DNA from: Desulfobacteraceae bacterium UBA5623 | GTDB lineage: Bacteria; Desulfobacterota; DSM-4660; Desulfatiglandales; Desulfatiglandaceae | Direction: 5' to 3' | Length of the DNA: 52,086 bases | NCBI GenBank assembly: GCA_002424495.1 | Contig: DIKH01000397.1 | Location: 54,222 to 106,307, forward strand | Shown here: positions 10,713-30,421 of the stretch, piece by piece | Layout: every line of letters begins with the position of its first letter | Position numbering within the stretch: the first letter of the stretch is position 1 | Notes under the pieces: model-generated | Databases searched by the model: none | The model's input: the letters and a program-made list of their open reading frames with translations, nothing else | What the model was told of the DNA's origin: nothing | Program-made: the position numbers and the translations under genes

Positions 10713-12758
10713 CTAATCCATTATGGCTTTTGTAAAGGCATCTATTGCATCTGCGTAAAACTCGATGCTGACCTTAGTTGCCATTTCGTCGGATAGCTCG
10801 AATAATTGCCTGCGAGATGAAATAGGCATCAACAATGTCGTTGCTCCCTTCTCAACGGCCAGTTCTGCAACAGCGACCGGATTTGGCACCATTTCAACGG
10901 AACCGCCAAGGTTTAATGCCCCAACAATGATGAGACCACCTTTTACGCTCCGTTCAATCAAGCCTCCGCAGAGTGATAATAGGACGGCAAGGCCAAGCCC
11001 CTGTCCCGAGCTGTCAATGTCCATAGATCGTAATTGTATCGAGAACTCATGGTTACGGGGATCACGATCTCCTACAAGCTCCTTAGCCCGCACATACAGA
11101 TTTTGTTCTCCGTAACGAACGCTTTCTCTGAAGGCAGGGGGTACAGGTGTATTGAGTATCTTTACCCCACTTCCGGGACCAACCGTTACCTCAATTCGAT
11201 ATAGCGCAGAGGAAGCTTCCTGGCCGCCCGGACTAATGGCCCAGACCTGGCCTGGAGGAAGTGGATCGGCATCAATCAATTCATCGCTGTGAAGCTCCGG
11301 GGTCGAGACAAACTGTTCTACACCATCTACACCCATGAAATAGCTGAAATGGGTATTTCTGAATTCCGTTTTCAGACATCGTTTCTGCTGTTCTTTAACA
11401 CGGCGGCGTGCTTCCAAAGCGATGCGAACAATTGATTCCAACTCCTCATCAGGAATGGGCGTATCAGGGGAAGGAAAAATGAGTTTTATCAAACCACTGA
11501 TTGTCTTGTTTACAGCCTCGATATCTCGGCCACTGAGGGCTCCTCCCCAATTTATGCGCCCCTGTAATACTGGCAGCCGGCTTCCAGAACGAAGTTTGTT
11601 CCAACATTCGGACAAAAAATCGCTGACAAGACCAAAATGATTGGACAGATTGTCAGGATTCAATTTGGGGAAATCCCAACCCGGAGCATAGGCGTGAATA
11701 CGATCCATAAATGCGGTATCGTTCCTCATTTCGACAGGCAGTGGACTGAGTAAGTGCCCGATTCGCTGTTGTTGTTCAACGTCAACTTCAAAATTCCCTA
11801 CCATTACGATGCCGCCAAAAGCTCTAATTGGCTCTTTGCCTCTGGAAAATTCTCCAGAGGCCATATAGCCTTTCATAATATTAACGCCATCCTTCTGGTC
11901 AAAAGATACCCCTGAAATCTCGTCAAAACACACCACATCATAATGGCAAACAAGGCCACGTTGACCATTCGCCATATTGACAAACATTTTTGCCACAGTG
12001 GCTTTACCGCCTGATACTAAATGAGAATAAGGGGAAATTTGCTGATATATATGACTCTTTCCCGTCCCTCTTGGGCCAAGCTCTACCATGTTATAATTGT
12101 TTTCAATAAATGGAATCATGCGGAGTAACGCTACCATCTGGGCACGGTCGGAGAGCGTTTCCGGTTCTAGTCCAACACATCGAATCAGAAACCTCTTCCA
12201 TTCTTCAGTGGTGAATTGGCTCCGGCCTCGATCCAAAACGGAAAGCACATCTGACTTTGAAAGTTGGATTGCCCTCAAGCCTTCTACTGCAAAAGGTCTA
12301 CCGCTTTTTTCTTGAGCTATTGCCGCGTCGTAAGTCAAATTTAGCTCAGCATAAAAACCATCGGTGAGCATCCGCTCATTGTCGTGCACAAGCTGATCGC
12401 TGATACGCACGTCACGCAAACCCAGGCTTGGAAGCTCGGCAATAAAACAATCATTCTTAGAGTCGAGTTTGGCTTTTATGATATCAATTAACTTAACTGA
12501 TCCTTTTTCCCGTGCCCAGGCTTTAAATAATTCCTCTTCCCCGGTTCGGACAGTCCGATCTTTCAGTTGTCTTTCAACAATTCCAAGGCCTTCCTCGATT
12601 TCTTTTTCATCAACAGTCGCGCAATAACGCCCAAGTAAAAATTCAACCACATATGTGGGTACAGGATACTGTCGGCTGTATTTTCGGACCAGGTCCTTGC
12701 GCACCAGGAATCCGTCAAATGCTGAGGCGGCAAGTCGGTCGAGGTTGTCAAGTTCCAT
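10713..12758 (-). CDS. brxL: BREX Lon-like protease BrxL
   Basis: 681 aa. The N-terminal reads FDGFLVRKDLVRKYSRQYPVPTYVVEFLLGRYCA. Walker A is GPRGTGKSH, with a C-terminal Lon-protease-like region. It is the last gene after pglZ, as in type 1 BREX. Confidence 0.85.
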   Translation of the reverse strand: MELDNLDRLAASAFDGFLVRKDLVRKYSRQYPVPTYVVEFLLGRYCATVDEKEIEEGLGIVERQLKDRTVRTGEEELFKAWAREKGSVKLIDIIKAKLDSKNDCFIAELPSLGLRDVRISDQLVHDNERMLTDGFYAELNLTYDAAIAQEKSGRPFAVEGLRAIQLSKSDVLSVLDRGRSQFTTEEWKRFLIRCVGLEPETLSDRAQMVALLRMIPFIENNYNMVELGPRGTGKSHIYQQISPYSHLVSGGKATVAKMFVNMANGQRGLVCHYDVVCFDEISGVSFDQKDGVNIMKGYMASGEFSRGKEPIRAFGGIVMVGNFEVDVEQQQRIGHLLSPLPVEMRNDTAFMDRIHAYAPGWDFPKLNPDNLSNHFGLVSDFLSECWNKLRSGSRLPVLQGRINWGGALSGRDIEAVNKTISGLIKLIFPSPDTPIPDEELESIVRIALEARRRVKEQQKRCLKTEFRNTHFSYFMGVDGVEQFVSTPELHSDELIDADPLPPGQVWAISPGGQEASSALYRIEVTVGPGSGVKILNTPVPPAFRESVRYGEQNLYVRAKELVGDRDPRNHEFSIQLRSMDIDSSGQGLGLAVLLSLCGGLIERSVKGGLIIVGALNLGGSVEMVPNPVAVAELAVEKGATTLLMPISSRRQLFELSDEMATKVSIEFYADAIDAFTKAIMD

Positions 12759-12760
12759 GT

Positions 12761-15106
12761 CTATTCATCACCTCCAATTGTGGTAGTCTGCTTCCCTACT
12801 ACTGAACCGGAAGAATCAATTAGTACCAGGCTGACAACGGTGCCTTCCAGTTCCTCATTTTCAACAAGCAGGCTCACCTGGCCGTCAGCACTGATCATTT
12901 TAGGGACGGCTACACTTGAAGTTTCATCATTGGGTTTTGTTCTAAGATCTGCTTTAATTTTGGCTCCCCCCGAATCAATGGTGGCTCTGCAGCGCATACC
13001 ATGCCACTGTATGTCTTTTATTTTTGCGATGGTCTGAACAGCCACATCACTCAAGCTGAATTGCAGGTCCGGGATGAGGCATTCCTGTAAACTCACACCA
13101 CCATGGGCGTATTCATTTCCATTTGAAAAGCAATTTATCCCCGGACCATAGGCAAAATATTCATGGGAATTCCAATACCAACTGGCCATCGGAAAATCGA
13201 CTTTTGAATGATCTTTAGTAACCGCGCACCTTGCCCATCGGCATTCGGTGAGGTATTTCGGCAACTTCACAGCAGGCAGACCGCCTGGAACAAGGAGCCA
13301 GCCATGATCCGTTATCACTCTTACCCGTTTCCATCCGGCATCAAGCAACTCCCGGATTCTTTCAATCAAAAGTTCTATCTGCTCCGTGATTCTGGCCGCC
13401 AGCTTGCCTTGTAATGTATGACCGAGCTTGTCAATCTCACCGAATTCCGTCCACGCGCGGGCATCCGCTTTTTCTGGCTCACCAGCATCAGATAGGCTGA
13501 GAACCTGGTATCCTTCCGAGGTGAGCAGTTTACGGAAACGGTCAATGGTTAACGGTTTGCCGTCTTCTTTTGTTTCAGGCCGAAACTCATCTCCTAATTG
13601 ATTCCCTTTGATTTTCCCGGCTACCGGTGAAAGGGCGGGTTTAGATGTCGCGGTTACTGTCGGCAGGGAAGCCCAGCGCCAACTGGCCGAGGCCTTAAGC
13701 CGTCTTTCCTCTGCCAAAATGCCTAACCGCTTTGAAACATCAAATCGAAGACTGTCGGCAAATAACAGGCATTCTCCAACCTCAGCCTCTGCTCCATGCA
13801 GATCGCAGCAAGCTGAGGGCAAGGGCGTTTCAGTTAACAATTTCTGGAAATTACGGGCCGTATCATCCAGCCAGGGCAAATAGGTGCTCCTTAAAGCCGC
13901 TTCTATGGCGTTATAATCTTCACTGGATTTGACACTTCCAAGGGCAGAAATAGCCGCCATATCTGCTTCATAGCCACCTTCCCTATAAACAGCGGCCATT
14001 GCATCAAGCGAATCACCACCGATGTTTTGGGTAGTTGCATCAGCCACCACAGCCAAATGTTCTAACGATGTTGCAACAGGACTTTGCCCGATTTTCGCCC
14101 ATACCCAATCACGGCGTTGATGATGTTTTTTCTCTAATTCTTTAATTGTCTTCCTGGCTTCTGCAGCGCTCTTTGAAGATAAACTCAACAGCTCCTGTCG
14201 TAATGATTTTTCTTCGCTGTCGTTTTCATCGGGCCATGGTGCTTTGTCAAAAATGAGTTTTCCTGAAGGCTTCGACTTTCTGAGCACCTCCGGCATACCT
14301 GGGTACAGCAGCGGCGATTCTTCAAAACGCCTCCAGAGATTCTTCCAGGCTTCATTTTCCCGCATCCCGAGGTTTTCCCCGGCGACAATTGCACCATCTT
14401 TTTCCGGATCAAAACAATATTCCGCCTTACAACGCGAAACAAATGCCGACCATTTATTTTCATTCCATTGTTCCTGAATTTCTGATGGCGAATTCATCCA
14501 TACCAGTAAGTCACGCGGCGTATCTTCAATCATCAGCTTATCGAAATCTTCTGCCTCAAGACGTTTAGCGGTCAGCCGTGTGATTGGTGTTACTGCAAGT
14601 TGGGCTAATGCACCGAGCATTGATTGTTTGGTGTGTCTATCCTTGGCAACATCCAGTCCCAGACCCCCTTCCTTTGAGACTAGAAACGCCTCCACCGTCC
14701 AGTCCCTTCCGTTCCGTTGCGTCCAAACCGTGCCCCGATATTGCAGCTCAACTAGCGGTTTTAGGGTGTCAGGGCATTCCTCGACGGCTCTCAACGTTTG
14801 CCTGCTGACATTCGGCATGTATATGACAGGCGTGACATCTTCCGGCAGAGAGTGCTCGATAACACATCTAAGCCAGATGGCTGGCCCGATCCTTTTCCCG
14901 GGGTCATATTCACCCAGCGTAAACAGTTCGGGCATCAAAGGCCTCAGTTGATCCACCAGGGCAGCCCATTGGCTGTCTGAATCGGTCCACAAAATGACCG
15001 CCGGCCCGACCATGTCGGATCGGTTGTACCGACCGGCCTGAAGGAGCGAAAGTCTTACTGATTCGAGAAGCGTTGAATAAATCTTATGTTCGGAATACTT
15101 CGTCAT
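12761..15106 (-). CDS. pglZ: BREX alkaline-phosphatase-superfamily protein PglZ
   Basis: 781 aa. It has a PglZ-type core (LLFADSLRFDV...VITDHGWLLVPGG) and sits between pglX and brxL. Confidence 0.85.
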   Translation of the reverse strand: MTKYSEHKIYSTLLESVRLSLLQAGRYNRSDMVGPAVILWTDSDSQWAALVDQLRPLMPELFTLGEYDPGKRIGPAIWLRCVIEHSLPEDVTPVIYMPNVSRQTLRAVEECPDTLKPLVELQYRGTVWTQRNGRDWTVEAFLVSKEGGLGLDVAKDRHTKQSMLGALAQLAVTPITRLTAKRLEAEDFDKLMIEDTPRDLLVWMNSPSEIQEQWNENKWSAFVSRCKAEYCFDPEKDGAIVAGENLGMRENEAWKNLWRRFEESPLLYPGMPEVLRKSKPSGKLIFDKAPWPDENDSEEKSLRQELLSLSSKSAAEARKTIKELEKKHHQRRDWVWAKIGQSPVATSLEHLAVVADATTQNIGGDSLDAMAAVYREGGYEADMAAISALGSVKSSEDYNAIEAALRSTYLPWLDDTARNFQKLLTETPLPSACCDLHGAEAEVGECLLFADSLRFDVSKRLGILAEERRLKASASWRWASLPTVTATSKPALSPVAGKIKGNQLGDEFRPETKEDGKPLTIDRFRKLLTSEGYQVLSLSDAGEPEKADARAWTEFGEIDKLGHTLQGKLAARITEQIELLIERIRELLDAGWKRVRVITDHGWLLVPGGLPAVKLPKYLTECRWARCAVTKDHSKVDFPMASWYWNSHEYFAYGPGINCFSNGNEYAHGGVSLQECLIPDLQFSLSDVAVQTIAKIKDIQWHGMRCRATIDSGGAKIKADLRTKPNDETSSVAVPKMISADGQVSLLVENEELEGTVVSLVLIDSSGSVVGKQTTTIGGDE

Positions 15107-16278
15107 TATTCAGCTTTCCTTGCCATCCGTGCCATAAACAGGTTACGTTCGTAATCCGTTTCCAATTTAAAGTCCGGCACCAAAGCCAAGGCACGAAGGA
15201 TACCGGTGCCGATTCCTCGATATGGCAATTCCTTGGTTGCGAACGAGGCGATAAGGGGATTGCGGATGACCGACACGCCATTGCTGATGTTCTCAATAGT
15301 CAGATTATTCGGCAACGCACCAGGGCTGATCAATTCGATGCGATTGTCAAAAATCATAATGCGCCAAGGCGCTGAAATGAAATAGTCCCGGTGCAGAAGC
15401 ATGTTGACTACGAGTTCCTCGATTGCAACGGCAGGGATTTCCAGATCACCTTCAGTATTAAAATCCTTGTCGCTTTGTAATCTGCGAAGATTCCGGGTGA
15501 TAAATGACATGGTGCGGGTATGCAAGTCGCGCAGACAGCCACCAATGTCCTCACTGTCCCTATATTTCACGCCCGCTGGGTCATTACCCACGAAAGAGAC
15601 GGCCTTGACGACAAAGGCAGGACGATAACGTTGTGGATCCCGTCCGAACAGAAGCAAACCCGCGAGGTTGAGGGTCTCGTCTTTGGCAAGACCCAAATTG
15701 TTCAAAAGCCGGGCCATCGTCAGGCCGGAGTCTTCCAGCGCCTGTTTCACGGATCGACCGTGTTGTTTTTGAAAGAAGCCGTTGAAATGGCCATCGTCCA
15801 ACGAGTCCAGGGTTGTCCCTTCAACAGGGACTTCATCGGCATGAACAAGACCTGCGCGTTGCATCATCCGCTGAATCTCCTCACGGGAGGTGACCGGTCG
15901 CTTGTTGGCCGCCGATTTGACCCAAAAAACCCCTTCATTATCCATGTAGGGTTTTGAGATGCCTTCGGGAATGTTGATGACCATGACCAATTTTTCGTCA
16001 ATGATAACATTATCGATTTTCGGGTTGATCGACGGTCGAATGAAATCGGTCGCTGCATCGGAGATGATCTGATTGATTCGGCGGATATCATCGGGTGCTA
16101 CACCGATGACAGATCCAGAATCGTCCACACCGATGAGCAGTCTTCCCCCTTTGCTGTTTGCAAAAGCCACCATTTCCCCAACAAGAGATTTGGCATTGGT
16201 GACTTCCTGGTTCCGCTTGAACTGTGTGCAGGAATCTTCTCCGCGCCCTATCAATTCAATTAGTTCAATTGAGTTCAT
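15106..16278 (-). CDS. AlbA_2 (Schlafen-like) / HATPase_c_4 domain protein, short form (usually auto-annotated as RecG-like helicase or transcriptional regulator)
   Basis: The N-terminal reads EDSCTQFKRN...VAFANSKGGRLLIGVDDSGSVIGV (AlbA_2 signature). The later motif ELVVNMLLHRDY...IELISPGALP is HATPase_c_4-like. I prefer ATG 16278, which has GGTGGAG upstream; the ORF track start is 16311. Its stop overlaps the pglZ start by 1 nt (TAATG). Confidence 0.7.
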   Translation of the reverse strand: MNSIELIELIGRGEDSCTQFKRNQEVTNAKSLVGEMVAFANSKGGRLLIGVDDSGSVIGVAPDDIRRINQIISDAATDFIRPSINPKIDNVIIDEKLVMVINIPEGISKPYMDNEGVFWVKSAANKRPVTSREEIQRMMQRAGLVHADEVPVEGTTLDSLDDGHFNGFFQKQHGRSVKQALEDSGLTMARLLNNLGLAKDETLNLAGLLLFGRDPQRYRPAFVVKAVSFVGNDPAGVKYRDSEDIGGCLRDLHTRTMSFITRNLRRLQSDKDFNTEGDLEIPAVAIEELVVNMLLHRDYFISAPWRIMIFDNRIELISPGALPNNLTIENISNGVSVIRNPLIASFATKELPYRGIGTGILRALALVPDFKLETDYERNLFMARMARKAE

Positions 16279-16420
16279 GATTAAAACTCCACCTTTCTCC
16301 ATTGCCATCAACCCATTCCCCGTCTTTCCCTTTCTCCAATTCGCCCTTGCCTTCGTCCGTTTATCATGGCAAAAATATCTTTAATTTATCTTTTTATTTT
16401 AAATGGTTAAATGATTTTCG

Positions 16421-16465
16421 GTCTAAAAGTCCTGCTAAAGTCCGTCTAGTTTCCGTCTAAGATCC
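16421..16465. repeat. Four tandem ~11-bp direct repeats (GTCTAnnnTCC)
   Basis: The units are gtctaaaagtcc, tgctaaagtcc, gtctagtttcc and gtctaagatcc, placed head to tail. They straddle the stop codon of the 559-aa gene and lie upstream of the 390-aa gene. Confidence 0.7.
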
Positions 16466-18125
16466 ATTTAGCATGCCGGCCTGGGCCTCCCTGTGTTCTG
16501 ATACTCCTATCATTCTTGGACATTTCCTGGAGCAAGTTACGGATTTTGTTCTTTTTCTGTTCATGGCTCAGGATGTCCGGCAGTTTTTCATAGAGAAGAT
16601 TGTCAATTTCACTCCGGCTTGCGGAGCCAAATTTTTTAATAAAAGCAAGTATCATTTGCTTATAATGCCCTTTGTCAAATGCACGATACCGGATATAGTC
16701 AACCTTTCCCTGAGTTGCCTCGGCAATACGGCCAGCCACAAAAAGATTCGGTCGACGACCTTCAATAAGTCTAATTCTTTTTAATCGATTGAATTCTTCA
16801 TCTGAGAGCTGATATTTTTTTTGGACCTTATCGAGGGCGATAACATCGAACAAACTAAGATTGGTATTTTTCATCAGAAGCTTTGTATAATTTTCGTTCA
16901 ATATTTTTCCAAGCAGCCGGACTTTAACCCGCTGGGGATCAGAAAGATCATAGTCTGGCATGGGGAAAAATCTGCCACGCTGCAAGTTGAAAATCCTTTT
17001 GATGCCGCTGCCGATGGTATCAATCATCTGCAAATTGACCATAGCATCGGTTAAAAACTGGTTTCTGTAATATTCAGGTGGTGCATCAAGACGGATGACA
17101 TTTTCAACACTCTCAGGAAGAAACGAACCTCCATTGACGAAAAACAGAGAATCTTCCTCCTCTACAACATTAATTCTCCCCCTGAGAGCATAATCCTGAT
17201 GTGCAATACAATTATGAAGAAGCTCACGGATAACCCATGAATCATACTGGGTAATCTCTACTGGAAAAAGGGAATGGTCTCGCATGTAACGGTACGTGAG
17301 ATTGCGAATTCTATTGAACAGGTGGTTGGAATTGAGAAGAAATGGCGGTCCAAAATGTTGATAATCTTTTTCCATGCCGCTTTGGTCCCTCAGAATCCAG
17401 CTTATTCTGGCTATTGCCGGTTCAAGGTGGTATTCAGATTCCTCCCGCCCTAATAGAATAATAGCTGTAGTGGTTATTTTACCGTTTTTCAGGACCTTGG
17501 CTTTGTTGAGAAAGGTTTCATCTCTCCATTCTTCCACTTCGGAGGCCAGGTTGGGATACTTGGACCTGAAAAATTCCCTGGCACGGGCGATGGCAGCAGG
17601 GTCAAGATCTGTAAGGCTGGCATTCGGACATATTTCCCCTGACCAATCCGGTTGAGTAACTAGCAGGATAAGCTCATGTTCATGGGGATTGAGCGGGCCA
17701 ATGGATTCTCCGTCCCGGCCATAATGATGTCCTTTCCAGGCTGTGGGCACACCCGGCCGGGCTGGGGGAATTTCAAACATTACCACGCGCCCCTCTGGCA
17801 GATGCAGTTCGTGGATTTCTGCAAATGTCAGCCGGTTGGATGTTTGATCCGCAATTTCCTTTTTCAGGTTATCCAGGTCCGCTCGATCTAGGCGGAAATC
17901 CGACCCCACGATCTTTCGCGGGTGGTTCTGAATACCAAAGATAAGCCATCCTGCTTCTTGTCTTTTCAAACGTGCTTCATTGCTGAGCGCCGAAAAATAC
18001 TGCCCCAGTTTATCGAAATGAAACGATCGGGATGCTTGCTTGAATTCAACCCATTCGATTTCAGCCGGCAAGGCCATTAGTTCGCTTAGTTTTCGGTGTA
18101 GCGCCTGAGAGTCATAAGCCTTCAA
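16446..18125 (-). CDS. AlbA_2 (Schlafen-like) / HATPase_c_4 domain protein, long form with C-terminal winged-helix-like tail
   Basis: 559 aa. It has EIEWVEFKQ near the N-terminus, then IRELLHNCIAHQDY...FFVNGGSF, then a basic helical C-terminal region. Its ATG overlaps the pglX stop by 4 nt (ATGA). Confidence 0.7.
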   Translation of the reverse strand: MKAYDSQALHRKLSELMALPAEIEWVEFKQASRSFHFDKLGQYFSALSNEARLKRQEAGWLIFGIQNHPRKIVGSDFRLDRADLDNLKKEIADQTSNRLTFAEIHELHLPEGRVVMFEIPPARPGVPTAWKGHHYGRDGESIGPLNPHEHELILLVTQPDWSGEICPNASLTDLDPAAIARAREFFRSKYPNLASEVEEWRDETFLNKAKVLKNGKITTTAIILLGREESEYHLEPAIARISWILRDQSGMEKDYQHFGPPFLLNSNHLFNRIRNLTYRYMRDHSLFPVEITQYDSWVIRELLHNCIAHQDYALRGRINVVEEEDSLFFVNGGSFLPESVENVIRLDAPPEYYRNQFLTDAMVNLQMIDTIGSGIKRIFNLQRGRFFPMPDYDLSDPQRVKVRLLGKILNENYTKLLMKNTNLSLFDVIALDKVQKKYQLSDEEFNRLKRIRLIEGRRPNLFVAGRIAEATQGKVDYIRYRAFDKGHYKQMILAFIKKFGSASRSEIDNLLYEKLPDILSHEQKKNKIRNLLQEMSKNDRSIRTQGGPGRHAKWILDGN

Positions 18126-21100
18126 GTTTGTTTTTTCTCCTTCCGCGCCTTTTGCTTATCATTTATGTTCAAATGGATATCATTGACTCGATCGCCGGTG
18201 AATTCCCCATCTTTCCAGAGCCACGGATATTGTTCCTTCGGGCGAAATGGTTCCTTGCCCCGGTCCTTTTTCCAATCTATATTCGGCTTCCAACGGAGGA
18301 TTCCAGCTCCTTTCCTCCCGCCTGGAATATCCTGGGCCAAAAAGGGCCGAATATTTAATCGAACCCCGTCATTAATATCGGGTTCCCATCCTATAGGCTG
18401 ATCTTCGATTGGTTTCCAGCGCAGAAAAATATCAAACGGCGGTTCACCTTCAATGATTGCGATGAGTCGTTTCTGAAGCTCCAGGGCTGCGGCCAGACGG
18501 TCTTCCGCGCCGCCTTCTCCTCGTTTGACCCCTTCTCTTTGGCGGGTAATCCACTCACCGAGATAGCTATATGTTAGATTTTCCAGAAGTCGCCGTCCTT
18601 TTCCATTCCCTTCGGCCAGTTTGTGGTAATTCACGAGGGCATGAAACCCGTCTCGCCTGCGGCCATCCCATATGTGCCAAATAAAAGGCCGGTGATGAAA
18701 CAGGTTGCAGTGTTGTTCAAAGAAATGATCGCGTAGCCATTCATCCAAGTTGTAAGCATTTGCCCCTGTGGCTTTGATCAGTTCCTGTTCCACTAATGGT
18801 GACCAATCAGGTCCAAAAGCAGCGACAAGAAGTATGCGAAGCCGGCTATCCGCAGTTTCTTCTCCGCGAACCGAAGGAATGCAGACAATCCCATCTTCAT
18901 CAGTGTATTTTAAAAGTTCTTCACATTCGTTCACCCATTCCCGCTGTTCGTCAGCAAGTTCCATCTTAGGGTCAAGTTCCACAGGCCAGCGGCAGCCTAA
19001 AACCCTCGTCACAGCTACTTGCAACGGATAATCGCTCTGTGCTGGATGACCATGGAAGATCCATTGGGTGGGATCGTCAGAATAAAGTTGTGGCAGGCCG
19101 TTGGGATATTTTTCTTCGGCTACTTTGGTCCAATAGTCGAGGTCGAACGGAACCTTCACAACGGTCGCATTGTTAACCTTGATTCCATCTTCGATAACGT
19201 TGAGCTCTTCCTTGAATTCCGGTGACAAGCAGAAAGTCCAAATTGCCTGAAGTATCGTCTTCTTGTGAGGAATGATTGCAGTAACGTTACTATCAAAATA
19301 TGCGCCACTATAGAGCGAGAAGGTCAAATCTCCCATTAGTTTTACGACTACACCATGTTTACCCCATGCCGTGGTTCCCTGCAACCGAGCGAAGTTGCGC
19401 CCGTTCTCAGCCCAGTCAATAGCGTATCGCATCCCGCCAACGAATCCATTAGATTCAGGTGTTCCTTGAAATGGACGCCAGCGTTCATCAAATGTTGGCA
19501 ACTCCCACCAATTACGGCGGAAACAGCCATCATCCCCGGTCTTGATTCCCTGGGGAGAGTTAGCATACCCACCCAGTGTTTTTACACTACCATGGGCTTC
19601 TAATGTGATCCGGGAGTCAGGACCATTAAGGGCATCTTTCTGTAACACAGTTTGCCACTCGTTAATCGCCAAGCCTTCTGCCTTCTTTTGAATTTCCCCT
19701 GTACTAGCCAAATCCACGCCACCATATTTATGTTCAGCAGAAGGTAAATCGCTTGTGATAATTAGGAGAGCGACGTTTACTACCTCGCCGCTTATCGTCC
19801 CGAAGGCCCCAGGTCCCAGCTTTATCAAGGCATCAAAACGAAATGATTTTAATATCCGTTTACGCAACGCTGAATATGCAGGTAATGAAAGCCAATTCTG
19901 CGGACACACAATCCCCAGTGTTCCAGATTTCTGTGCAAGTTCCAGGGAGCGATCAAGAAAAGCAGTTGCCAAGTCTTGCCGAGAGTCATTGTAATAAAGT
20001 CCGATGAAATTTTTTAAACTCTCCGACTGCTTACCGCGAGCTAGATACGGAACGTTGGTAACAATCAAAGCATAATTTCCCGCGAGAAGTTTAACGGCCT
20101 TGAGCATACCCTTTGCGGCCACCCCCATCTCCACCTTCTCGTCACTCATCTCCTGCGTCAACGCACTGTCGAGAACGGGTTCTATGCTCTTCCAGTCCTG
20201 AGAAAAAAGTGAATACTCCCTCAACATGTGCCGTGGGTTAATAAGGCTTCCTAGAGTCTGAGCATCCTTGAATAGGTTGTAAAGCTGGTCTATATGGAAC
20301 GAGAGCGAACCGTCATTACCCACTAACGTCAGCCAATCTCCTTTCTTGGCGTTGATCGATAACCCCGAACAGGCCACATTTAACTCAGGCAATTGCCTGT
20401 AACCGCCAGCGCCTGGATACCTCCAGGCCGTAAGAGCTAGGGCGAACGCGGCCAGCTCGACACACCGATTGTCTATCTCCAGACCGTGAAGGTTTTCGCA
20501 CAGCACGGCATCCACTGCCTCGCGGGTGGAAAGCCGATCCAATTCCATACGCATAGCTACAAGCATCAAGAAAGCAGCTACCAGAAAATGACCTGAACCA
20601 CAGCAAGGATCGAGGATTTTGAGTTCGCTTAAACGCTCCGGCCAGCCGTCAAAGGTTCCCGTTGCCGGTGTCCATGTCCCATTTTCCTGCTTAACAAGCC
20701 TAAGATATTCCAATGGAACGCTAGGGAGGGCCATCAGGCGACGGCAATCAGCCTCGGTCTGGCATTTTTCCCATTCCTCTTTCAGCCTTCCCCCTTCCTC
20801 ATTGAGCCTTTTCCCGGCCCACCATGCTCCCAGAGAATTATCGAGTAGGAAGCTTACCATATATGGCTCAGTGAAAAGCTGGGTCACCGCCGGCAGTTCA
20901 TCAGCGCCGATTTTATTACCTGATGCGTTTACTTCTTTTTTTCGTTTACCTTGCCAGAATTGATAGACCCATCCTAGTGAATTGCTCGCCGTGAAAATCG
21001 CAGGTTCCAGGCCATTGAGCAAATTTTCCAGCTTCAGTCGATGCTCGCGGGCAAGATTAACATTGAGAACAGGATCATTTGGTCGAAAAATTTGAGGCAA

Positions 21101-21514
21101 CATACTTTGGGCAAATTCACTGGCCAGTGTCCAGAGATCCTTCCCATCTTCTTTTGCCAGTTCCTCGCATTCCTCAAGGCTTATGGCGACACCCGTCTCC
21201 AGCTCTATAAGGAGATCATTTTCAGCCAGAAAACGGGCAAACAGCATTCGATGCCAGTGCTCATAGGCGCATTCCCGCATAAGATGGGTGAGATCCATCT
21301 CACCTTTCCGATTCTGCTTGTCACCCAACTGTCGTGCCCTGGCGCGCAAATGGTTCCGCAGCATACGCTCCTCAGGAGACATGTGGCCATAAGGCTCATG
21401 ATGATGCACGGCAATCGCCTCTAATGCTGCTTTTGCGCCTGCCTCAGCCACACCTCTTGCTTCAACGATTGTCCGTTCCAGTTTATTGCGTAGCTCTGTC
21501 GAAAGTGGGTTCAT
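18122..21514 (-). CDS. pglX: BREX N6-adenine DNA methyltransferase PglX
   Basis: 1130 aa. The SAM motif I is LDPCCGSGHFLV (20585..20614). The catalytic motif IV variant is TNVPY (20045..20056). Size and position match type 1 BREX. Confidence 0.9.
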   Translation of the reverse strand: MNPLSTELRNKLERTIVEARGVAEAGAKAALEAIAVHHHEPYGHMSPEERMLRNHLRARARQLGDKQNRKGEMDLTHLMRECAYEHWHRMLFARFLAENDLLIELETGVAISLEECEELAKEDGKDLWTLASEFAQSMLPQIFRPNDPVLNVNLAREHRLKLENLLNGLEPAIFTASNSLGWVYQFWQGKRKKEVNASGNKIGADELPAVTQLFTEPYMVSFLLDNSLGAWWAGKRLNEEGGRLKEEWEKCQTEADCRRLMALPSVPLEYLRLVKQENGTWTPATGTFDGWPERLSELKILDPCCGSGHFLVAAFLMLVAMRMELDRLSTREAVDAVLCENLHGLEIDNRCVELAAFALALTAWRYPGAGGYRQLPELNVACSGLSINAKKGDWLTLVGNDGSLSFHIDQLYNLFKDAQTLGSLINPRHMLREYSLFSQDWKSIEPVLDSALTQEMSDEKVEMGVAAKGMLKAVKLLAGNYALIVTNVPYLARGKQSESLKNFIGLYYNDSRQDLATAFLDRSLELAQKSGTLGIVCPQNWLSLPAYSALRKRILKSFRFDALIKLGPGAFGTISGEVVNVALLIITSDLPSAEHKYGGVDLASTGEIQKKAEGLAINEWQTVLQKDALNGPDSRITLEAHGSVKTLGGYANSPQGIKTGDDGCFRRNWWELPTFDERWRPFQGTPESNGFVGGMRYAIDWAENGRNFARLQGTTAWGKHGVVVKLMGDLTFSLYSGAYFDSNVTAIIPHKKTILQAIWTFCLSPEFKEELNVIEDGIKVNNATVVKVPFDLDYWTKVAEEKYPNGLPQLYSDDPTQWIFHGHPAQSDYPLQVAVTRVLGCRWPVELDPKMELADEQREWVNECEELLKYTDEDGIVCIPSVRGEETADSRLRILLVAAFGPDWSPLVEQELIKATGANAYNLDEWLRDHFFEQHCNLFHHRPFIWHIWDGRRRDGFHALVNYHKLAEGNGKGRRLLENLTYSYLGEWITRQREGVKRGEGGAEDRLAAALELQKRLIAIIEGEPPFDIFLRWKPIEDQPIGWEPDINDGVRLNIRPFLAQDIPGGRKGAGILRWKPNIDWKKDRGKEPFRPKEQYPWLWKDGEFTGDRVNDIHLNINDKQKARKEKKQT

Positions 21515-21554: not shown

Positions 21555-22295
21555 CTATGTATTTTCAATGTAACTAATTAATATTTTGAAGTTCTTACGA
21601 ATTATATTATCAGTATCTTCGAAAGATTTAGCCCAGATGACTTTCAGGTACTCTATTATCAGCTTCGTATCTTCAGGCTGAGCTGGAATACCTTTGATTT
21701 TAACATAAGGGCCATCCGTTTCTGTTAGAACTCGATCGGAGGGAATCCTCTCGATGATTTTTTGGCCGTTCTTAGATTTTATCATTGCAGGATTAATTGA
21801 AAAATAATGGCCTGCATTAATAAGTTTATCAAGCAAATTTAGGGGACCGTTGTACCAGTGAAAAACAGCTTTTTTGAGTTTATTTTCATTCACTAAATCA
21901 AAGAGACTTTTTTCGGCGCGCCGTGAATGTAAACTAATAAATCGGGGCCGGTCTTTTATTATGTTGAATATTCTTTGAAGGGTATCAATTTGCATCTGCC
22001 TTTTAGAGGCATCTTTTTCAGAAAAATCTAATCCGATCTCACCAATATAAGACGTTTTAATAGCAAGTGTCCTAAATAGATTTTCTTCAAACTTTTTGTT
22101 ACCCGAAAGCATCGGATGGTATCCGAGCGCCAACCGAACATGTTTAAAACCCACGAAATGAGGATAGGCTAAATTGAAATGTTCTGGAAGACTGGTTACA
22201 GCTACTGTTATTATGCCTTTGTCCTCTGCTTTTTTGGCAATTTCGAATGGTTTGGAAAATTGATCTATATGGCAATGTACATCAATCATGATCAA
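21555..22295 (-). CDS. qatD: TatD-family metal-dependent hydrolase, QatD
   Basis: 246 aa with IDVHCHID at the N-terminus and LTETDGPY near the C-terminus (TatD signatures). It overlaps the qatC stop (ATGA). Confidence 0.8.
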   Translation of the reverse strand: MIMIDVHCHIDQFSKPFEIAKKAEDKGIITVAVTSLPEHFNLAYPHFVGFKHVRLALGYHPMLSGNKKFEENLFRTLAIKTSYIGEIGLDFSEKDASKRQMQIDTLQRIFNIIKDRPRFISLHSRRAEKSLFDLVNENKLKKAVFHWYNGPLNLLDKLINAGHYFSINPAMIKSKNGQKIIERIPSDRVLTETDGPYVKIKGIPAQPEDTKLIIEYLKVIWAKSFEDTDNIIRKNFKILISYIENT

Positions 22296-23662
22296 TTCCT
22301 GTAGGTACTAGCCTGTCGTTGTACACGATGTGTTGCTTTGTCGCGTAGTAAGCTCCTAACCTCATCCAATGCTCGAAAAACGACGTTTCCATAATCTGGT
22401 AATTTTGAAATATCGAGATTTCCATTTGCCAAGAGTAAATCGGAGATTTCTTTCCCTGTTGGATTCTTTGACATGAGAGACGCATAAGCCCTGAAATCAT
22501 CCACTAACCCCTTGCTTGAATCTAAATCAACCTCGCCGGAACAGATATCTCTTCCGTAGACTTCAGTATCCAATCCAACTTTATTGAGAGCTGCCCTTCT
22601 GTATATGCAAGGCATACATCTGCCGCATTGTCTTGCAGAGCGTCGTATCCAGGTTTTTCTATGATGAGCTTTTGCGCATGAAACAGAAAGGTTAAAAATA
22701 TTTTCCAATAATTCTCTATTTTGGCATTGTTCAACGCATTCACCCTTGGTCTTAAATTCAAATGGATTCAGCACCCTGTTCGCAATACCTACGCGCTGTA
22801 ATACATGATTGATACTTGTTAAAAAGAAAGGGTGAGCAGTCCTGGTGCTACATGAACCACGACGAGATGGTGTTAAAGGGACGTTTAACGCAATGTTACC
22901 ATTTTCAGGCATGATCAAATTTATATTTTCTCCTGCAGTGGAGGCGACATATATGCCTAAGCCAATAAATAGGATAGAACGACTACGGAAAGATACTTCA
23001 TCGCCTGATGGCGTCTGTCCAGCTCTGACTTGAACGAATTTGACCCGATCACGGTAATGGCCTCTCAATTCATCGATCAAATTTTTTTGGTCAGATTTCG
23101 GCCCACCAACAGCCGGGTCATAATGCCCAACGAATTTAATAGTTGCTGCAGGGTTAGACTCCAACAAGTCTATTGCCCCTATCAAAGAGTCAAGGCCGCC
23201 TGAAAAAAGGCTTATTGTAATTGGCATTGTTTCCTTGATGAAAAGTCCGTACCGATTCCTTTTGGGACGAATCAAACTGCAATCTAAATTTCGATATGAA
23301 ATTTTCCACAAATCACCAGTCAGAAAGGATATTGCACTGTTAAAACTGTCAGCGTTTTGATTCCATAACTCAGGATTGGAGACAGGAATTTCGACCTGCA
23401 ATTGTCGCGTCCAATTATCGATTGAAAGGGATCTCGGTACAAGCTTGTCAATGCAGTAAACAACTGTCGATATAAAAAGAAAATCTATTGAGGGTTTAGG
23501 AGGCAAATCGCATTTATCAAGCAACATTGAAAAATCGATATCGATAGAGGACGAGAGACCGGTGGTACCACTGTTAAGCGTAACAATTGCGAATTCGTTC
23601 TTCGTTGACTCTTGCGGATTTATAGACACAGTGACAATCATATTAGCCCCCGAAAATTTCAT
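22292..23662 (-). CDS. qatC: QueC-like PP-loop ATPase, QatC
   Basis: 456 aa with the PP-loop LFSGGLDSLIGA and a C-terminal Cys cluster CGRCMPC. An alternative ATG at 23641 would remove the 20-nt overlap with qatB. Confidence 0.8.
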   Translation of the reverse strand: MKFSGANMIVTVSINPQESTKNEFAIVTLNSGTTGLSSSIDIDFSMLLDKCDLPPKPSIDFLFISTVVYCIDKLVPRSLSIDNWTRQLQVEIPVSNPELWNQNADSFNSAISFLTGDLWKISYRNLDCSLIRPKRNRYGLFIKETMPITISLFSGGLDSLIGAIDLLESNPAATIKFVGHYDPAVGGPKSDQKNLIDELRGHYRDRVKFVQVRAGQTPSGDEVSFRSRSILFIGLGIYVASTAGENINLIMPENGNIALNVPLTPSRRGSCSTRTAHPFFLTSINHVLQRVGIANRVLNPFEFKTKGECVEQCQNRELLENIFNLSVSCAKAHHRKTWIRRSARQCGRCMPCIYRRAALNKVGLDTEVYGRDICSGEVDLDSSKGLVDDFRAYASLMSKNPTGKEISDLLLANGNLDISKLPDYGNVVFRALDEVRSLLRDKATHRVQRQASTYRN

Positions 23663-24374
23663 AGGTATCTTGCAGGATATTATCCGTGATACTTTGCCCC
23701 TCGGCTCCTCCCCAATTGATCTGGCTTAAATCTCTCTCAGACGCCTTCAGTGCTAAAGAAGATTTTATGGTATCAAAAATACTGTTTAAATATGAATCGG
23801 TATTTACCCTCCCGATTCGGTTCACTAACCGTTCATAAAAGACTCTGCAAAACTGTTCGTAGAGATAATAGCCAAAAAATTTACTTAGCAAGTCTTCAAG
23901 AGCTTCTCCTTCCATGACTTGCTCTAAAACTTCCTCTACTTGTTCAGGAGTTTCCAGGCCACCAAGAAGCTCATCCATTACCTTCGAGAGGGCATTCCTG
24001 GCATCAGAATCATTAATCGTGCTTGCCGGACCGCCAAGCTTATCAATAAGTGCAGGTATTATTTCGCCTGCAGGCTTTCCAGCAAATTCAGAAAGGCCGT
24101 AGGATTCAAGAGTTCGCTGAAGACCAACAGAACCGACAGAGGAAATAAAGTCAGCGACCCTACGTGCCGTATTCTGGGCAGACCTTCCTGCACCGATTGC
24201 TCCTCCCCCTCTGGAGATATTGCGTGCCCCTCCGCTGGTCCCAATAAATCCATGCAAGGTATCTCTTGCAGAACCAGGCGAAACAGAACCACTTCTTGCA
24301 GTTCGCGTTACCTGGCTTTTCAGATCTCCCCAATCAGGAGTGGACGGAGCTTCGTATCCGGTTGATGTGCCCAT
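23643..24374 (-). CDS. qatB: QatB (small Gly/Ser-rich N-terminus protein of Qat systems)
   Basis: 243 aa starting MGTSTGYEAPSTPDWGDL. Its position between the KAP NTPase and the QueC-like gene matches QatABCD order. The call rests mainly on context. Confidence 0.6.
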   Translation of the reverse strand: MGTSTGYEAPSTPDWGDLKSQVTRTARSGSVSPGSARDTLHGFIGTSGGARNISRGGGAIGAGRSAQNTARRVADFISSVGSVGLQRTLESYGLSEFAGKPAGEIIPALIDKLGGPASTINDSDARNALSKVMDELLGGLETPEQVEEVLEQVMEGEALEDLLSKFFGYYLYEQFCRVFYERLVNRIGRVNTDSYLNSIFDTIKSSLALKASERDLSQINWGGAEGQSITDNILQDTYEIFGG

Positions 24375-24380
24375 CTCACC

Positions 24381-29861: not shown

Positions 29862-30421
29862 CAGTCGCTTACCCCGTTATGTAAGGTTATGGGAACGGCC
29901 AAATAATTCCAGCCATCCCGCGCATCGAGGAGCCGATAATTGTTATTGTCAAACTCACCTGGAAAAAAGAGCAACAAACGGCCCCGAATGTCATGGATGA
30001 CTTCCTTCAAAATTAAAGATACCTTGGTGAAACCATATAAACTTGCCACTCCATACACGGCCACCACGCTTTTTGCATCGACATCTGAGTCTGTTAATAC
30101 CTTTCTAAGTTCATGCGATGCAAACTGCAAAAATCCGCTTTGAAGTTTCATTGTCAGATCTTCCGGAGATTCAAAATACAGGTCTCTATATTCTGTGTTG
30201 GCCATCCAGGTGGCGAAGGTCTTTGTAAAATTAAAAGGCTTCCATTTATGCTTGGCATCGATTGTTGCCATTTCAAAAAGCTCAAGCCGGGCACGCAGCT
30301 TACGTTCGTCCTCTTTGGGGTAGACCACAAAGATGGCTTTTTGGTCTCCAGCAAGGTTGCGTTGCCACGGTGCAGAGATATGATTACGATAGCGAGTTGC
30401 CAGATCTTCAATCCGTCCCAT
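29861..30421 (-). CDS. brxB: BREX protein BrxB (DUF1788)
   Basis: 186 aa with C-terminal LLLFFPGEFDNNNYRLLDARDGWNYLAVPI, typical of DUF1788. It overlaps brxA by 14 nt. Confidence 0.85.
   Translation of the reverse strand: MGRIEDLATRYRNHISAPWQRNLAGDQKAIFVVYPKEDERKLRARLELFEMATIDAKHKWKPFNFTKTFATWMANTEYRDLYFESPEDLTMKLQSGFLQFASHELRKVLTDSDVDAKSVVAVYGVASLYGFTKVSLILKEVIHDIRGRLLLFFPGEFDNNNYRLLDARDGWNYLAVPITLHNGVSD

Follow-up and report, generated by a model that had tools for sequence, protein, structure and literature searches.

Two accessory Schlafen-ATPase genes at the pglX-pglZ junction of a BREX locus and a direct-repeat array at the 3' end of one of them

One family of Schlafen-type ATPase genes carries arrays of short direct repeats at its 3' ends, and these arrays are what is new here. 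The member that we analyzed, LONG, lies with a second gene, SHORT, between pglX and pglZ of a BREX locus, in a 52,086-nucleotide stretch of DNA (the window) from Desulfobacteraceae bacterium UBA5623. Judging from sequence comparisons, the array seems matched to LONG's own DNA-binding helix. On our analysis, both genes most likely encode ATP-gated growth-arrest effectors, with LONG bound to its own repeats. The overall model, to which we assign a probability of roughly 0.55, has two separate accessory Schlatpases (a Schlafen/AlbA_2 nuclease-like domain plus a GHKL ATPase) at a BREX operon boundary, where they would provide a second layer of defense with control through LONG and its repeats.

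Gene order at the BREX junction

All six core BREX genes are present on the minus strand: brxA (30408-31238), brxB (29861-30421), brxC (26415-29861), the methyltransferase gene pglX (18122-21514; PADLOC PglX, 1587 bits), pglZ (12761-15106; PADLOC PglZ, 2e-302), and brxL (10713-12758). An earlier note, made by a model from the sequence alone, had described an otherwise canonical six-gene BREX locus; the six genes stand, but a complete QatABCD system identified with PADLOC (minus strand, 21555-26351; QatA 1e-106, QatB 8e-12, QatC 2e-96, QatD 3e-57) is nested as a second defense system between brxC and pglX. As the earlier note had it, two minus-strand open reading frames occupy the pglX-pglZ gap, at 16446-18125 (LONG, 559 amino acids, adjoined upstream by pglX) and 15106-16311 (SHORT, at most 401 amino acids, adjoined downstream by pglZ). 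Both have thousands of homologues and dN/dS values of 0.10 to 0.23 (0.10 to 0.14 for LONG and about 0.2 for SHORT), and they are therefore real genes under purifying selection.

The TAATG overlap of the SHORT stop with the pglZ start (15104-15108) is as previously described, whereas the ATGA start proposed for LONG is not what the sequence contains: LONG starts with TTG at 18125, giving a TTGA overlap with the pglX TGA, and the nearest ATG (18115-18113) is out of frame. Because SHORT homologues are 390 amino acids long, we place its real start at ATG 16278 (minus strand, 15106-16278), which is preceded by a GGTGGAG ribosome-binding site. The 167-nt spacer between LONG and SHORT contains repeats and a promoter-like site, and SHORT is thus not coupled to LONG. 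In Bacillus cereus, BREX is organized as two operons split at pglX/pglZ (PMC9122589). By the same layout, the junction in the window would be the boundary of two operons that gained two separate accessory genes, with LONG ending the first and translationally coupled to pglX, and SHORT heading the second and coupled to pglZ.

Such a boundary could also be simply a safe landing site, in which case LONG and SHORT would be plain passengers, independent defense or selfish genes, and the array would serve only LONG autoregulation. In this locus and its relatives, a variety of cargo (QatABCD, PDC-S05, TrlFG, and others) is found at both BREX junctions. Between the window and the related locus L085, dS is 0.11 for LONG and 0.55 for pglZ, which dates exchange of the cassette later than that of the BREX core. 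That about 29% of LONG genes are found away from recognizable restriction or BREX loci also favors passengers, and it means that functional coupling to BREX is not required. However, LONG strongly prefers the slot immediately upstream of the restriction gene, with other cargo placed further away on that side, and both junctions with BREX genes are start/stop overlaps. We regard the passenger explanation as one to be taken seriously, if an unlikely one.

Domain architecture and known relatives

LONG combines an AlbA_2/Schlafen nuclease-like domain (residues 22-145, minus strand, 17691-18062; Pfam PF04326, SLFN_AlbA_2, 4.4e-14), a GHKL/HATPase_c_4 domain (residues about 296-405, minus strand, 16911-17240; PF13749, 2e-9) with an E301...N305 Mg-ATP motif, and a C-terminal tail (minus strand, 16458-16895). 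The tail, previously called winged-helix-like, folds in the AlphaFold model into two winged-helix units, of which wHTH1 (residues 411-463) is conserved and wHTH2 (residues 485-556) is variable. SHORT lacks the tail and matches the same two profiles (SLFN_AlbA_2, 6.8e-23; HATPase_c_4, 1.6e-11), so that the domain calls made earlier are borne out for both proteins; the motifs cited for them (EIEWVEFK, CTQFK...AFANSKGGRLLIGVDD, ELLHNCIAHQDY, and ELVVNMLLHRDY) were all found. In Foldseek searches, the AlbA_2 domain of LONG resembles SLFN11, SLFN12, and the SAMD9 tRNase domain, and its GHKL domain resembles histidine-kinase CA domains and PDK. The whole-length LONG model shares its fold with 3LMM (DIP2311 of Corynebacterium diphtheriae, a structural-genomics entry; E = 1.6e-21) at a sequence identity of 18%.

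LONG keeps an intact Ex4ExK motif (E22/E27/K29), and all 198 of 198 homologues retain E22, E27, K29, E301, and N305. Its third acidic position is N67, a site occupied by D in 123 and by N in 60 of the 198 family members. SHORT keeps invariant ATP-site residues among its homologues (E288/N292), but its nuclease motif reads E14-x4-Q19-x-K21 (Ex4QxK), and its catalytic activity is uncertain because the second catalytic acid is Q. Given these residues, either LONG (N67) or SHORT (Q19) could have little nuclease activity or none.

The earlier note had proposed the genes as an undescribed module, which does not hold. Proteins with a Schlafen RNase domain, a minimal histidine kinase, and wHTH, exactly like LONG in architecture and genomic association, have been reported as tightly linked to BREX or BREX-related loci in at least 1017 taxa and proposed as backup suicidal effectors (PMC12839542; NAR, January 2026); they are known from comparative genomics only. 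The class has also been defined as "pSlfn-HisKinase(-HTH)" (Taboada et al., Nat Microbiol 2026) and "Schlatpase" (Kuzmenko et al.). SHORT fits pSlfn-HisKinase, and LONG, with its Ex4(E/D)xK motif, fits pSlfn-HisKinase-HTH; on sequence, LONG is a member of the Schlafen-HisKinase-HTH class ("Schlatpase-HTH"). These two architectures are the commonest among prokaryotic Schlafens, at 34% and 19.2% of 5,930, respectively, and robust protection was found for DUF262-Slfn and Ig-like Slfn5, with the HisKinase fusions tested in Escherichia coli not among these two (PMC13056530). We were unable to find in the literature a stand-alone Schlatpase of either subfamily with a demonstrated anti-phage mechanism.

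The closest mechanistic comparisons are with RzAgo and TrlG. In RzAgo (SLFN-pAgo), as in LONG and SHORT, AlbA_2 is followed by a GHKL domain (PF13749), and the E...N Mg-ATP residues are kept; the PADLOC SLFN-pAgo model also matches SHORT (3.7e-13). In contrast, neither window protein has an Argonaute sensor, and LONG adds two wHTH units and a repeat array in cis. The RzAgo active site is formed by two AlbA_2 domains from different protomers, and a D32A mutation abolishes cleavage; by the same account, Schlatpases are mostly small, some having a C-terminal HTH and others not, and there is exchange of the module with type I restriction-modification (R-M) loci (bioRxiv 10.64898/2026.05.29.728809). 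At the site of this essential D32, SHORT carries Q. TrlG of the Photorhabdus Temperature Restricting Locus causes growth arrest, and its loss-of-function mutations include S16N, within the E-D-S-x-x-Q-F-K motif (PMC7554251). At the level of size and domain positions, SHORT resembles TrlG. By analogy with both systems, ATP binding to the GHKL domain would drive oligomerization, assemble an active Schlafen site, and arrest growth, in the case of LONG probably through tRNA cleavage. Both genes would then act as an abortive-type second layer beside BREX.

Distribution of the two families

The two families keep different company. Among 56 LONG loci with at least three genes on each side, 30 are type I R-M, 6 BREX, 3 Hma (one of which also has type I R-M genes), and 1 type III R-M, with none of these systems in 16. 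LONG lies directly upstream of hsdR, pglZ, pglXI, or res in other genomes, and in 33 of 75 loci the nearest sizeable gene downstream is HsdR, in agreement with the earlier description of this architecture as a recurrent R-M passenger. Across phyla, genes of this wHTH-bearing subfamily directly precede the restriction portion of methylation-based defense loci. SHORT-family genes normally lie directly downstream of a TrlF-family ATPase, present in 29 of 38 loci and matching NF045780 ("TrlF family AAA-like ATPase") at 531 bits; IncC plasmid pNDM102337 has one such module embedded among type I R-M genes. In the window, by contrast, we found neither trlF nor trlR, and LONG and its array precede SHORT. 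SHORT, an HTH-less Schlatpase of the TrlG family, would have lost its usual TrlF partner (a PHP plus ABC ATPase).

These neighborhoods bear on the idea, raised in the earlier note, of a dedicated two-component BREX guard that fires when BREX is inhibited (e.g., by Ocr-type DNA mimics), like PrrC for EcoprrI. PrrC and RloC are anticodon nucleases within type I R-M loci that pair an ABC ATPase with a HEPN-like fold; they would share with the window pair the guard logic of an RNA-cutting suicide effector nested in a restriction locus. The folds are unrelated. The order of LONG, an HTH-less Schlatpase, and a restriction gene recurs in L005, L085, and the Brocadia locus L140, and each window gene is tightly coupled to a BREX gene. 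A composite active site as in RzAgo would also suit proteins of which one lacks the third acidic residue and the other the second. However, a Schlatpase directly follows LONG in only 3 of about 88 loci beyond the window, and the one in L140 is from another family, with 31% identity and a canonical ExxxxExK motif. LONG usually stands alone, SHORT is regularly partnered by TrlF, and the two proteins share only about 20% identity, all of which contradicts an obligate pair. Neither family is BREX specific: each has members in type I R-M, type III R-M, Hma, and BREX type 3 loci, and there are LONG genes that stand alone. A dedicated guard is very improbable.

Direct repeats at the LONG 3' end

The array in the window begins with four direct repeats, TTAGACGGA, CTAGACGGA, TTAGCAGGA, and TTAGACCGA (minus strand, 16418-16460), with unit starts 11, 11, and 12 nt apart, which are kept in L085, L005, and L006. 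Its onset is two codons past the invariant W554, and the LONG stop codon falls inside it. A distal fifth unit, ATAAACGGA (minus strand, 16356-16364), lies 62 nt downstream of unit 4, and L005 has TAGACGGA at the matching position, so that the whole array (16356-16460) comprises five same-strand units in 105 nt. It is degenerate, with only two exact 6-mer copies. Across the family the pattern is pronounced: a 6-mer occurs at least four times near the stop codon in 42 of 84 LONG genes, compared with 13 of 1,193 other genes and 1 of 33 SHORT genes (Fisher p = 1.5e-43), and repeat spacing peaks at 10 to 13 nt. Four further loci beyond the original sample also carry arrays. We found no earlier report of such arrays in the literature searched, and a text search of PMC12839542 for 3' repeat arrays, TrlF, direct or tandem repeats, iterons, and operators found no mention of them. 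The earlier note had spotted the repeats of the window, without interpreting them.

Repeat sequence varies from locus to locus and tracks residue 529, which with N530 lies in the recognition helix predicted from the AlphaFold model (residues 521-538; R529 in the window). Among the variable positions scored of the 559 in LONG, residue 529 ranks top for mutual information with repeat class, a ranking that ignores kinship; a pairwise identity test of the same link gave a weak signal. We suggest that the variable wHTH2 binds head to tail to the 4+1 repeats at its own gene's 3' end. Binding would set how much LONG is present or its oligomeric state, and would probably also control a promoter for SHORT-pglZ-brxL. 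A candidate internal promoter (TAGACC, 18 nt, TAAAAT; minus strand, 16396-16425) sits in the AT-rich spacer between repeat units; it is a consensus match only, and such matches occur at background frequency (7 found versus 4.5 expected).

These features also fit a LONG that works mainly as a transcriptional controller, in the manner of type II R-M C-proteins. It would be expressed with the modification operon and bind the repeats ahead of the restriction-side promoter to set the timing or level of SHORT-pglZ-brxL (elsewhere hsdR or res), with Schlafen and GHKL as sensor modules instead of a toxin. The consistent position of LONG before a restriction gene, an array flanking a promoter-like spacer, covariation of helix and motif, the two-operon split, and the absence of a BrxR/WYL regulator from the locus, as the earlier note had stated, all point this way. 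The regulator alternative in that note gains weight, for LONG only, from its cognate array before a promoter-like site. However, a pure regulator would not need E22/E27/K29 to be invariant across phyla, arrays remain where the following gene is unrelated or points toward LONG (e.g., L001, L024, L027, and L049), and no repeat copies were found upstream of LONG itself. We consider a mainly regulatory LONG rather unlikely.

The repeats could instead act as RNA, a 3'-untranslated element bound or cut by the Schlafen/AlbA domain for mRNA autoregulation or as a type III toxin-antitoxin-style antitoxin. The LONG transcript carries the array in sense orientation, starting within the open reading frame, arrays are purine-rich on that strand (median 0.64) with a stop triplet in most units, and the NCBI product name is "RNA-binding domain-containing protein." However, the array goes with the wHTH tail, SHORT genes having neither, and its motif tracks a wHTH2 helix residue and not the AlbA_2 domain. 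The 10- to 13-nt units are far shorter than ToxI-type repeats (about 36 nt) and lie downstream instead of upstream, and an Rfam search of the repeats gave no match. An RNA role is improbable. For DNA binding by LONG, proteins that bind iterons or phased direct repeats offer an analogy only: ParR binds parC, where ten repeats of 11 bp lie on either side of a promoter, and PhoB, a winged-helix protein, binds pho boxes head to tail. The LONG array likewise has direct repeats about one helical turn apart, split by a promoter-like spacer, although the proteins and their functions differ.

The two Schlafen-ATPase genes and their BREX locus

The type 1 BREX locus of the window comprises co-directional brxA (30408-31238), brxB (29861-30421), brxC (26415-29861), pglX (18122-21514), pglZ (12761-15106), and brxL (10713-12758), all on the minus strand and all identified with PADLOC, Pfam, and NCBIfam (6/6 genes matched by PADLOC and NCBIfam). 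The island is flanked by typical Desulfobacterota housekeeping genes, such as HdrA-like and GcvH-like proteins, MTHFR, multiheme cytochromes, and sigma-54 regulators. The earlier note had taken the locus to be otherwise canonical, which it is not, because a complete QatABCD defense system (qatA-D, 21555-26351, minus strand; PADLOC, Pfam, and NCBIfam) occupies the junction between brxC and pglX. Gene order is therefore broken by two insertions, with cargo at two internal junctions. The second insertion, between pglX and pglZ, holds two minus-strand open reading frames (ORFs), LONG (16446-18125; 559 aa) and SHORT (15106-16311 at most).

Both ORFs, their quoted motifs, and the TAATG overlap of SHORT with pglZ were found in the sequence as described in the earlier note. 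The ATGA start reported for LONG had to be corrected to a TTG at 18125, which forms a TTGA overlap with the pglX stop codon TGA; the nearest ATG is out of frame. Since SHORT homologues are 390 aa long, we place its start at the ATG at 16278, which is preceded by the ribosome-binding site GGTGGAG and leaves a LONG-SHORT spacer of 167 nt. From these start/stop overlaps, LONG is predicted to be coupled to pglX and SHORT to pglZ. The BREX system of B. cereus is transcribed as two units, brxABC-pglX and pglZ-brxL (PMC9122589), so LONG would form the 3' end of operon 1 and SHORT the 5' end of operon 2. Between them lie a direct-repeat array and an AT-rich spacer with a promoter-like site (16425-16396), whose consensus match is at background frequency. 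The most economical view is that two independent acquisitions flank an operon boundary that acts as a cargo hotspot; the other BREX junction holds QatABCD, and relatives carry different cargo. BrxR/WYL regulators combine a winged helix-turn-helix (wHTH) with a WYL domain at the head of the locus. As the earlier note had observed, no such regulator was found here: LONG, SHORT, and the small ORFs upstream of brxA gave no WYL or BrxR match.

The domain assignment of the two proteins was borne out, as LONG and SHORT both score above the Pfam gathering thresholds for SLFN_AlbA_2 (PF04326) followed by HATPase_c_4 (PF13749), the Schlatpase order in one polypeptide, and for LONG the Foldseek matches agree. 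In the AlphaFold model of LONG (mean pLDDT, 76.8), a helical linker joins the AlbA_2 domain to a GHKL-type domain. These are followed, where a winged-helix-like tail had been proposed, by two C-terminal winged-helix units of helix-helix-helix-strand-strand form (modeled at residues 411-463 and 485-556). SHORT has no C-terminal wHTH, and LONG alone carries the tail that marks pSlfn-HisKinase-HTH proteins. In Foldseek searches of the PDB, the LONG model matches the uncharacterized structure 3LMM along its entire length (E = 1.6e-21), with partial matches to human SLFN11 and SLFN12, the SAMD9 tRNase domain, histidine-kinase CA domains, and pyruvate dehydrogenase kinases. The structure model of SHORT is poor (pLDDT, 58) and confident in the AlbA_2 domain only. 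Sequence searches of the PDB returned no match for LONG and just a weak 3LMM match for SHORT, and NCBIfam holds no named family for either. The two proteins share approximately 20% identity (pairwise BLASTP E-value, 0.065) and, judging by this divergence, are old paralogues; a recent tandem duplication is ruled out by the same low identity.

The putative active sites differ between the two families. LONG contains an Ex4(E/D)xK motif (E22-x4-E27-x-K29) in which all three residues are invariant among 198 homologues, and its third acidic position is D in 123 and N in 60 of these (N67 in the window). In SHORT the motif reads E14-x4-Q19-x-K21; E14 and K21 are invariant, Q occupies the middle-acid position in 148 of 154 family members, including an E. 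coli plasmid homologue 50% identical to SHORT, and the third acidic position is D52/D53 in ~93% of the 154 homologues. The GHKL Mg-ATP pair is invariant in both families (E301/N305 in LONG, 198 homologues; E288/N292 in SHORT, 154 homologues) and corresponds to E314/N318 of the Schlafen-Argonaute RzAgo. In RzAgo, the D32A substitution abolishes tRNA cleavage, and SHORT has Q19 at the matching residue. Against this benchmark, LONG appears to be an active nuclease or close to one, and the predicted active site of SHORT is conserved but noncanonical (Ex4QxK).

Repeat arrays at the 3' end of LONG and the second winged helix

Repeats had been flagged at 16421-16465, and we recovered four same-strand units there, TTAGACGGA, CTAGACGGA, TTAGCAGGA, and TTAGACCGA, which start at 16460, 16449, 16438, and 16426 on the minus strand with spacings of 11, 11, and 12 nt. 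A fifth minus-strand unit, ATAAACGGA (16356-16364), lies 62 nt further on. Matches to the repeat unit with at most two mismatches number 96 across both strands of the whole window; ~0.1 is expected per 105 nt of one strand. The array begins two codons past the invariant W554, runs across the LONG stop codon, and is conserved in the related loci L085 and L005 and in the more distant L006.

Direct-repeat arrays are a LONG-family-wide pattern, present at the end of almost every LONG gene, in which the repeat sequence changes between loci, with examples including TTAGATGAAAA (10 copies), TTAGTT, ATTAGAG, TTTAAGAGAG, ATGAGAG, and TTAGAAGAAGA. Counting regions from -30 to +120 of the stop codon in which one 6-mer occurs at least four times, we found such repeats at 42/84 LONG genes, 13/1193 other genes of the same loci, and 1/33 SHORT genes (Fisher p = 1.5e-43 for the LONG enrichment, with loci that are not independent). 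From one copy to the next the step is 10-13 nt, most often 12, with 11 and 10 following in that order of frequency. The first copy is placed, at the median, 4 nt ahead of the LONG ORF end, and the arrays are purine-rich on the sense strand. They accompany LONG whatever gene follows (hsdR, pglZ, a further Schlatpase, or a convergently oriented gene) and were also found in four further loci beyond the original sample. We found no mention of LONG-family 3' repeat arrays in the literature compared here.

Several features accompany the arrays. Across loci L001-L085 and L138-L142, the arrays found from 30 nt before to 120 nt after LONG-family stop codons are locus-specific and comprise 3-13 direct repeats, often with a second small cluster 60-120 nt downstream, past an AT-rich spacer. 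Several Bacteroidota loci have an inverted motif copy in the last codons after W554, as in L045, where TGG TCT CTT AAG is the reverse complement of TTAAGAGA. Six Bacteroidota loci (L042, L051, L052, L057, L060, and L074) share a conserved noncoding stretch, approximately GCAGCTAATTGTnTATATGCCGTTAATGATTCTCTGTATG, ~60-130 nt after LONG, between the array and hsdR; it may be an hsdR promoter or leader, and its appearance as a 100-aa ORF during ORF calling was a mis-call. More distant HTH-bearing Schlatpase paralogues in L084 (~20114) and L076 (~5922), 22-23% identical to LONG, show short motifs, repeated or inverted, immediately past the stop codon (TCTATACGCC and TTGCAAAG), and 3' repeats may extend beyond the LONG family.

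The position of the repeats bears on how they could act. Classical autorepression from an upstream operator is unlikely, since repeat copies are essentially absent from the 300 nt before LONG. Action at the RNA level could be imagined for purine-rich repeats that overlap a coding sequence, and type III toxin-antitoxin (ToxIN-like) systems offer a precedent, in which an array of ~36-nt repeats upstream of an endoRNase gene is processed to an antitoxin RNA. However, the LONG repeats, at 10-13 nt, are much shorter and sit at the other end of the gene, across and past the stop codon, and no Rfam family reached its gathering score in the window, with just noise at E < 1 around the array. We therefore regard an RNA-level role as improbable.

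The arrays are confined to the wHTH-bearing family. Within LONG, conservation is high in wHTH1, whereas the protein varies most in wHTH2. An earlier pairwise test, which compared sharing of a repeat motif with wHTH2 identity while core identity was held constant, gave only a weak trend, so we instead used permutation-corrected mutual information between alignment columns and repeat classes, calculated on 31 loci dereplicated at 90% identity and not corrected for the tree. Residue 529 scored highest among the variable positions scored, out of the 559 residues of LONG, and 13 of the 20 top positions fall in residues 478-556. Residue 529, an R in the window, adjoins the invariant N530 within helix 521-538 of wHTH2. 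Loci with G at this position have TTAAGAG or TGAGAG repeats (TTAGTTA in one clade); N is found mainly with ATTAGAG or ATTAGAA, along with several scattered AT-rich classes; T with TTAAAAG or TTATAAG; K with TTAGAAG or TTAGAC; and R with TTAGAY or TTAGC. Direct readout by a recognition helix would give this pattern, and LONG probably binds its own repeats.

Genomic context and exchange

The survey covered 80 LONG loci from genomes and 52 SHORT loci from metagenomes, in which we called ORFs, clustered the neighbors, and named the main clusters via Pfam, PADLOC, and NCBIfam. Of the 56 LONG loci that have three or more genes on both sides, 30 are type I restriction-modification (R-M) loci, 6 BREX type 1 or 3, 3 Hma (one also with type I R-M genes), 1 type III R-M, and 16 none of these. 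The first sizeable gene downstream of LONG (75 loci) encodes HsdR in 33 cases, PglZ in 4, and PglXI in 2; 29 of the 33 HsdR loci also have HsdM or HsdS upstream, and a Phaeobacter plasmid has the order mod-LONG-res. Inside BREX, the pglX-pglZ position, marked by the start/stop overlap in the window, is repeated in L005, L006, L008, L016, L026, and L085. Other cargo genes lie upstream of LONG, which is therefore the last gene before the restriction part. This position would be expected if LONG were a pure controller of the restriction module, a reading that leaves aside its invariant nuclease motif and that we consider unlikely. The 16 loci outside restriction systems and BREX have mixed neighbors with no shared theme (integrases, McrBC, kinases, and housekeeping genes). 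That LONG and SHORT are unlinked passengers would accommodate these neighbors more readily than the recurrent placement ahead of restriction genes, and is doubtful.

The SHORT family has a different habitual partner. A TrlF-type ATPase of ~872 aa, identified as NCBIfam NF045780 (TrlF family AAA-like ATPase; 531 bits against a cutoff of 350) and related to the anti-phage protein Ppl, is present in 29/38 SHORT loci, always directly upstream of SHORT. This TrlF-SHORT module lies between pglX and pglZ in L086-L088, within Hma systems (L002 and others), and in a type I R-M locus on the IncC plasmid pNDM102337. By tblastn and the cluster map, the window has no TrlF gene, and LONG takes that position. 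In six Hma systems (L002, L101, L103, L112, L124, and L128) the module sits between HmaA and HmaB, and the same systems also carry nested AAA_15 plus DUF3226 or DUF4276 pairs and a HEPN-fused HmaC.

Outside the window, the order LONG then SHORT is shared only by its close relatives L005 and L085. A Candidatus Brocadia sapporoensis locus (L140, 5235-11967) has the same layout in a type III-like setting, with a methyltransferase, a 134-aa ORF, LONG, an array, a 396-aa HTH-less Schlatpase, and Res, but its short gene belongs to another family. That protein is 31% identical to SHORT and has the canonical ENSYIEFK (ExxxxExK) motif, and its stop codon overlaps the Res gene. The pairing suggested in the earlier note is thus recurrent yet not obligate. 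A dedicated hetero-oligomeric BREX guard built of LONG and SHORT would account for the shared layout of the window, L005, and L085, but is very improbable. PrrC-type guards, in which an ABC-ATPase and an anticodon-nuclease domain are kept silent by the restriction enzyme, have a domain content unlike that of either protein.

Comparison with close relatives gave dN/dS values of 0.10-0.14 for LONG and ~0.2 for SHORT, the latter still ~0.2 between the window and L085, both of which are without TrlF. Decaying remnants are ruled out by these values (0.10-0.23). Between the window and L085, dS is 0.11 for LONG, 0.20 for SHORT, and 0.55 for pglZ, which argues that the insert was exchanged more recently than the BREX core.

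Proposed function and relation to known systems

The gene pair had been put forward as an undescribed module, a claim overtaken by published work on its class, its BREX association, and the effector hypothesis. BREX-embedded Schlafen RNase-kinase-wHTH proteins were proposed as backup suicidal effectors (PMC12839542). Among 5,930 prokaryotic Schlafens, Taboada et al. (PMC13056530) counted 34% Slfn-HisKinase and 19.2% Slfn-HisKinase-HTH proteins; HisKinase fusions were among the four architectures chosen for seven tests in E. coli, in which robust protection was reported only for DUF262-Slfn and an Ig-like Slfn, two systems in all. Kuzmenko et al. (10.64898/2026.05.29.728809) named the AlbA_2 plus PF13749 unit "Schlatpase" and described its exchange with type I R-M loci. 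In Photorhabdus, growth at 36 °C is arrested by TrlG, which combines AlbA_2 with HATPase_c_4 and is encoded downstream of TrlF; the arrest is lifted by point mutations in either domain, S16N within the motif region among them (PMC7554251). What is new here are the family-wide 3' repeat arrays of LONG and their match to a recognition-helix residue.

By analogy with these systems, we give a probability of roughly 0.55 to the reading that both genes encode ATP-gated, oligomerization-dependent growth-arrest effectors that form a second defense layer, with LONG under control of its array and probably acting as a tRNA-directed RNase. The amount or assembly state of LONG would be set by binding to the array, as would probably the operon-2 promoter.

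A more specific and more tentative version may be drawn for all wHTH-Schlatpases as sequence-specific DNA binders. Each would have a private array of 3-10 direct repeats, spaced at about one helical turn, fused to the 3' end of its gene and read by one variable recognition-helix residue. Immediately ahead of the restriction genes of type I R-M, type III R-M, or BREX loci, head-to-tail binding would keep the protein nontetrameric and inactive, and the bound protein would simultaneously gate transcription of those genes. Once it left the array, expression of the restriction genes would be coupled to the activation of a suicide effector that cuts tRNA. The protein-array complex would correspond, with DNA as the template, to the RNA-guided "safety-catch" filament of SLFN-pAgo.

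As a further BREX-embedded example, the window locus adds little. The commonest prokaryotic Schlafens are stand-alone Schlafen-ATPase proteins, and roughly one in five prokaryotic Schlafens is a wHTH-bearing Schlatpase, whereas mechanistic work has been confined to fusions with Argonaute, Ig-like, or CRISPR-linked sensor domains. The arrays and the residue 529 match offer a concrete and cheap hypothesis, with a defined DNA ligand, predicted specificity swaps, and a candidate link to restriction-module expression. We consider the main points of interest to be the cognate 3' arrays of the wHTH subfamily, the TrlG-type Ex4QxK site, and the orphaned TrlG gene behind LONG.

SHORT resembles TrlG in its HTH-less AlbA_2 plus HATPase_c_4 makeup, its length of ~390 aa, and its domain positions. 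TrlG lies directly downstream of a TrlF-family ATPase, whereas SHORT in the window is without TrlF, and growth arrest on induction is known for the P. laumondii protein only (PMC7554251). The TrlG family thus combines a conserved noncanonical Ex4QxK site with an ability to persist without TrlF. In a metagenome locus (L104, Ga0187854_10000466), a 70%-identical SHORT homologue lies directly 3' of a TrlF-family ATPase gene; this locus and the window are different sequences that share just 533 nt at 76%. Among genomes, L005 is closest to the window (95% identity in LONG); downstream of brxL it has a 502-aa TrlF-like ORF (~17800-19400), which may be a relocated relic of the partner that SHORT lacks. 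Phage genomes hold few relatives of these proteins, all distant, and one of them, gene 31 of Mycobacterium phage Squirty (NC_026588.1/KM101124.1), encodes an HTH-less Schlatpase 26.5% identical to SHORT that is annotated as "RecG-like DNA helicase."
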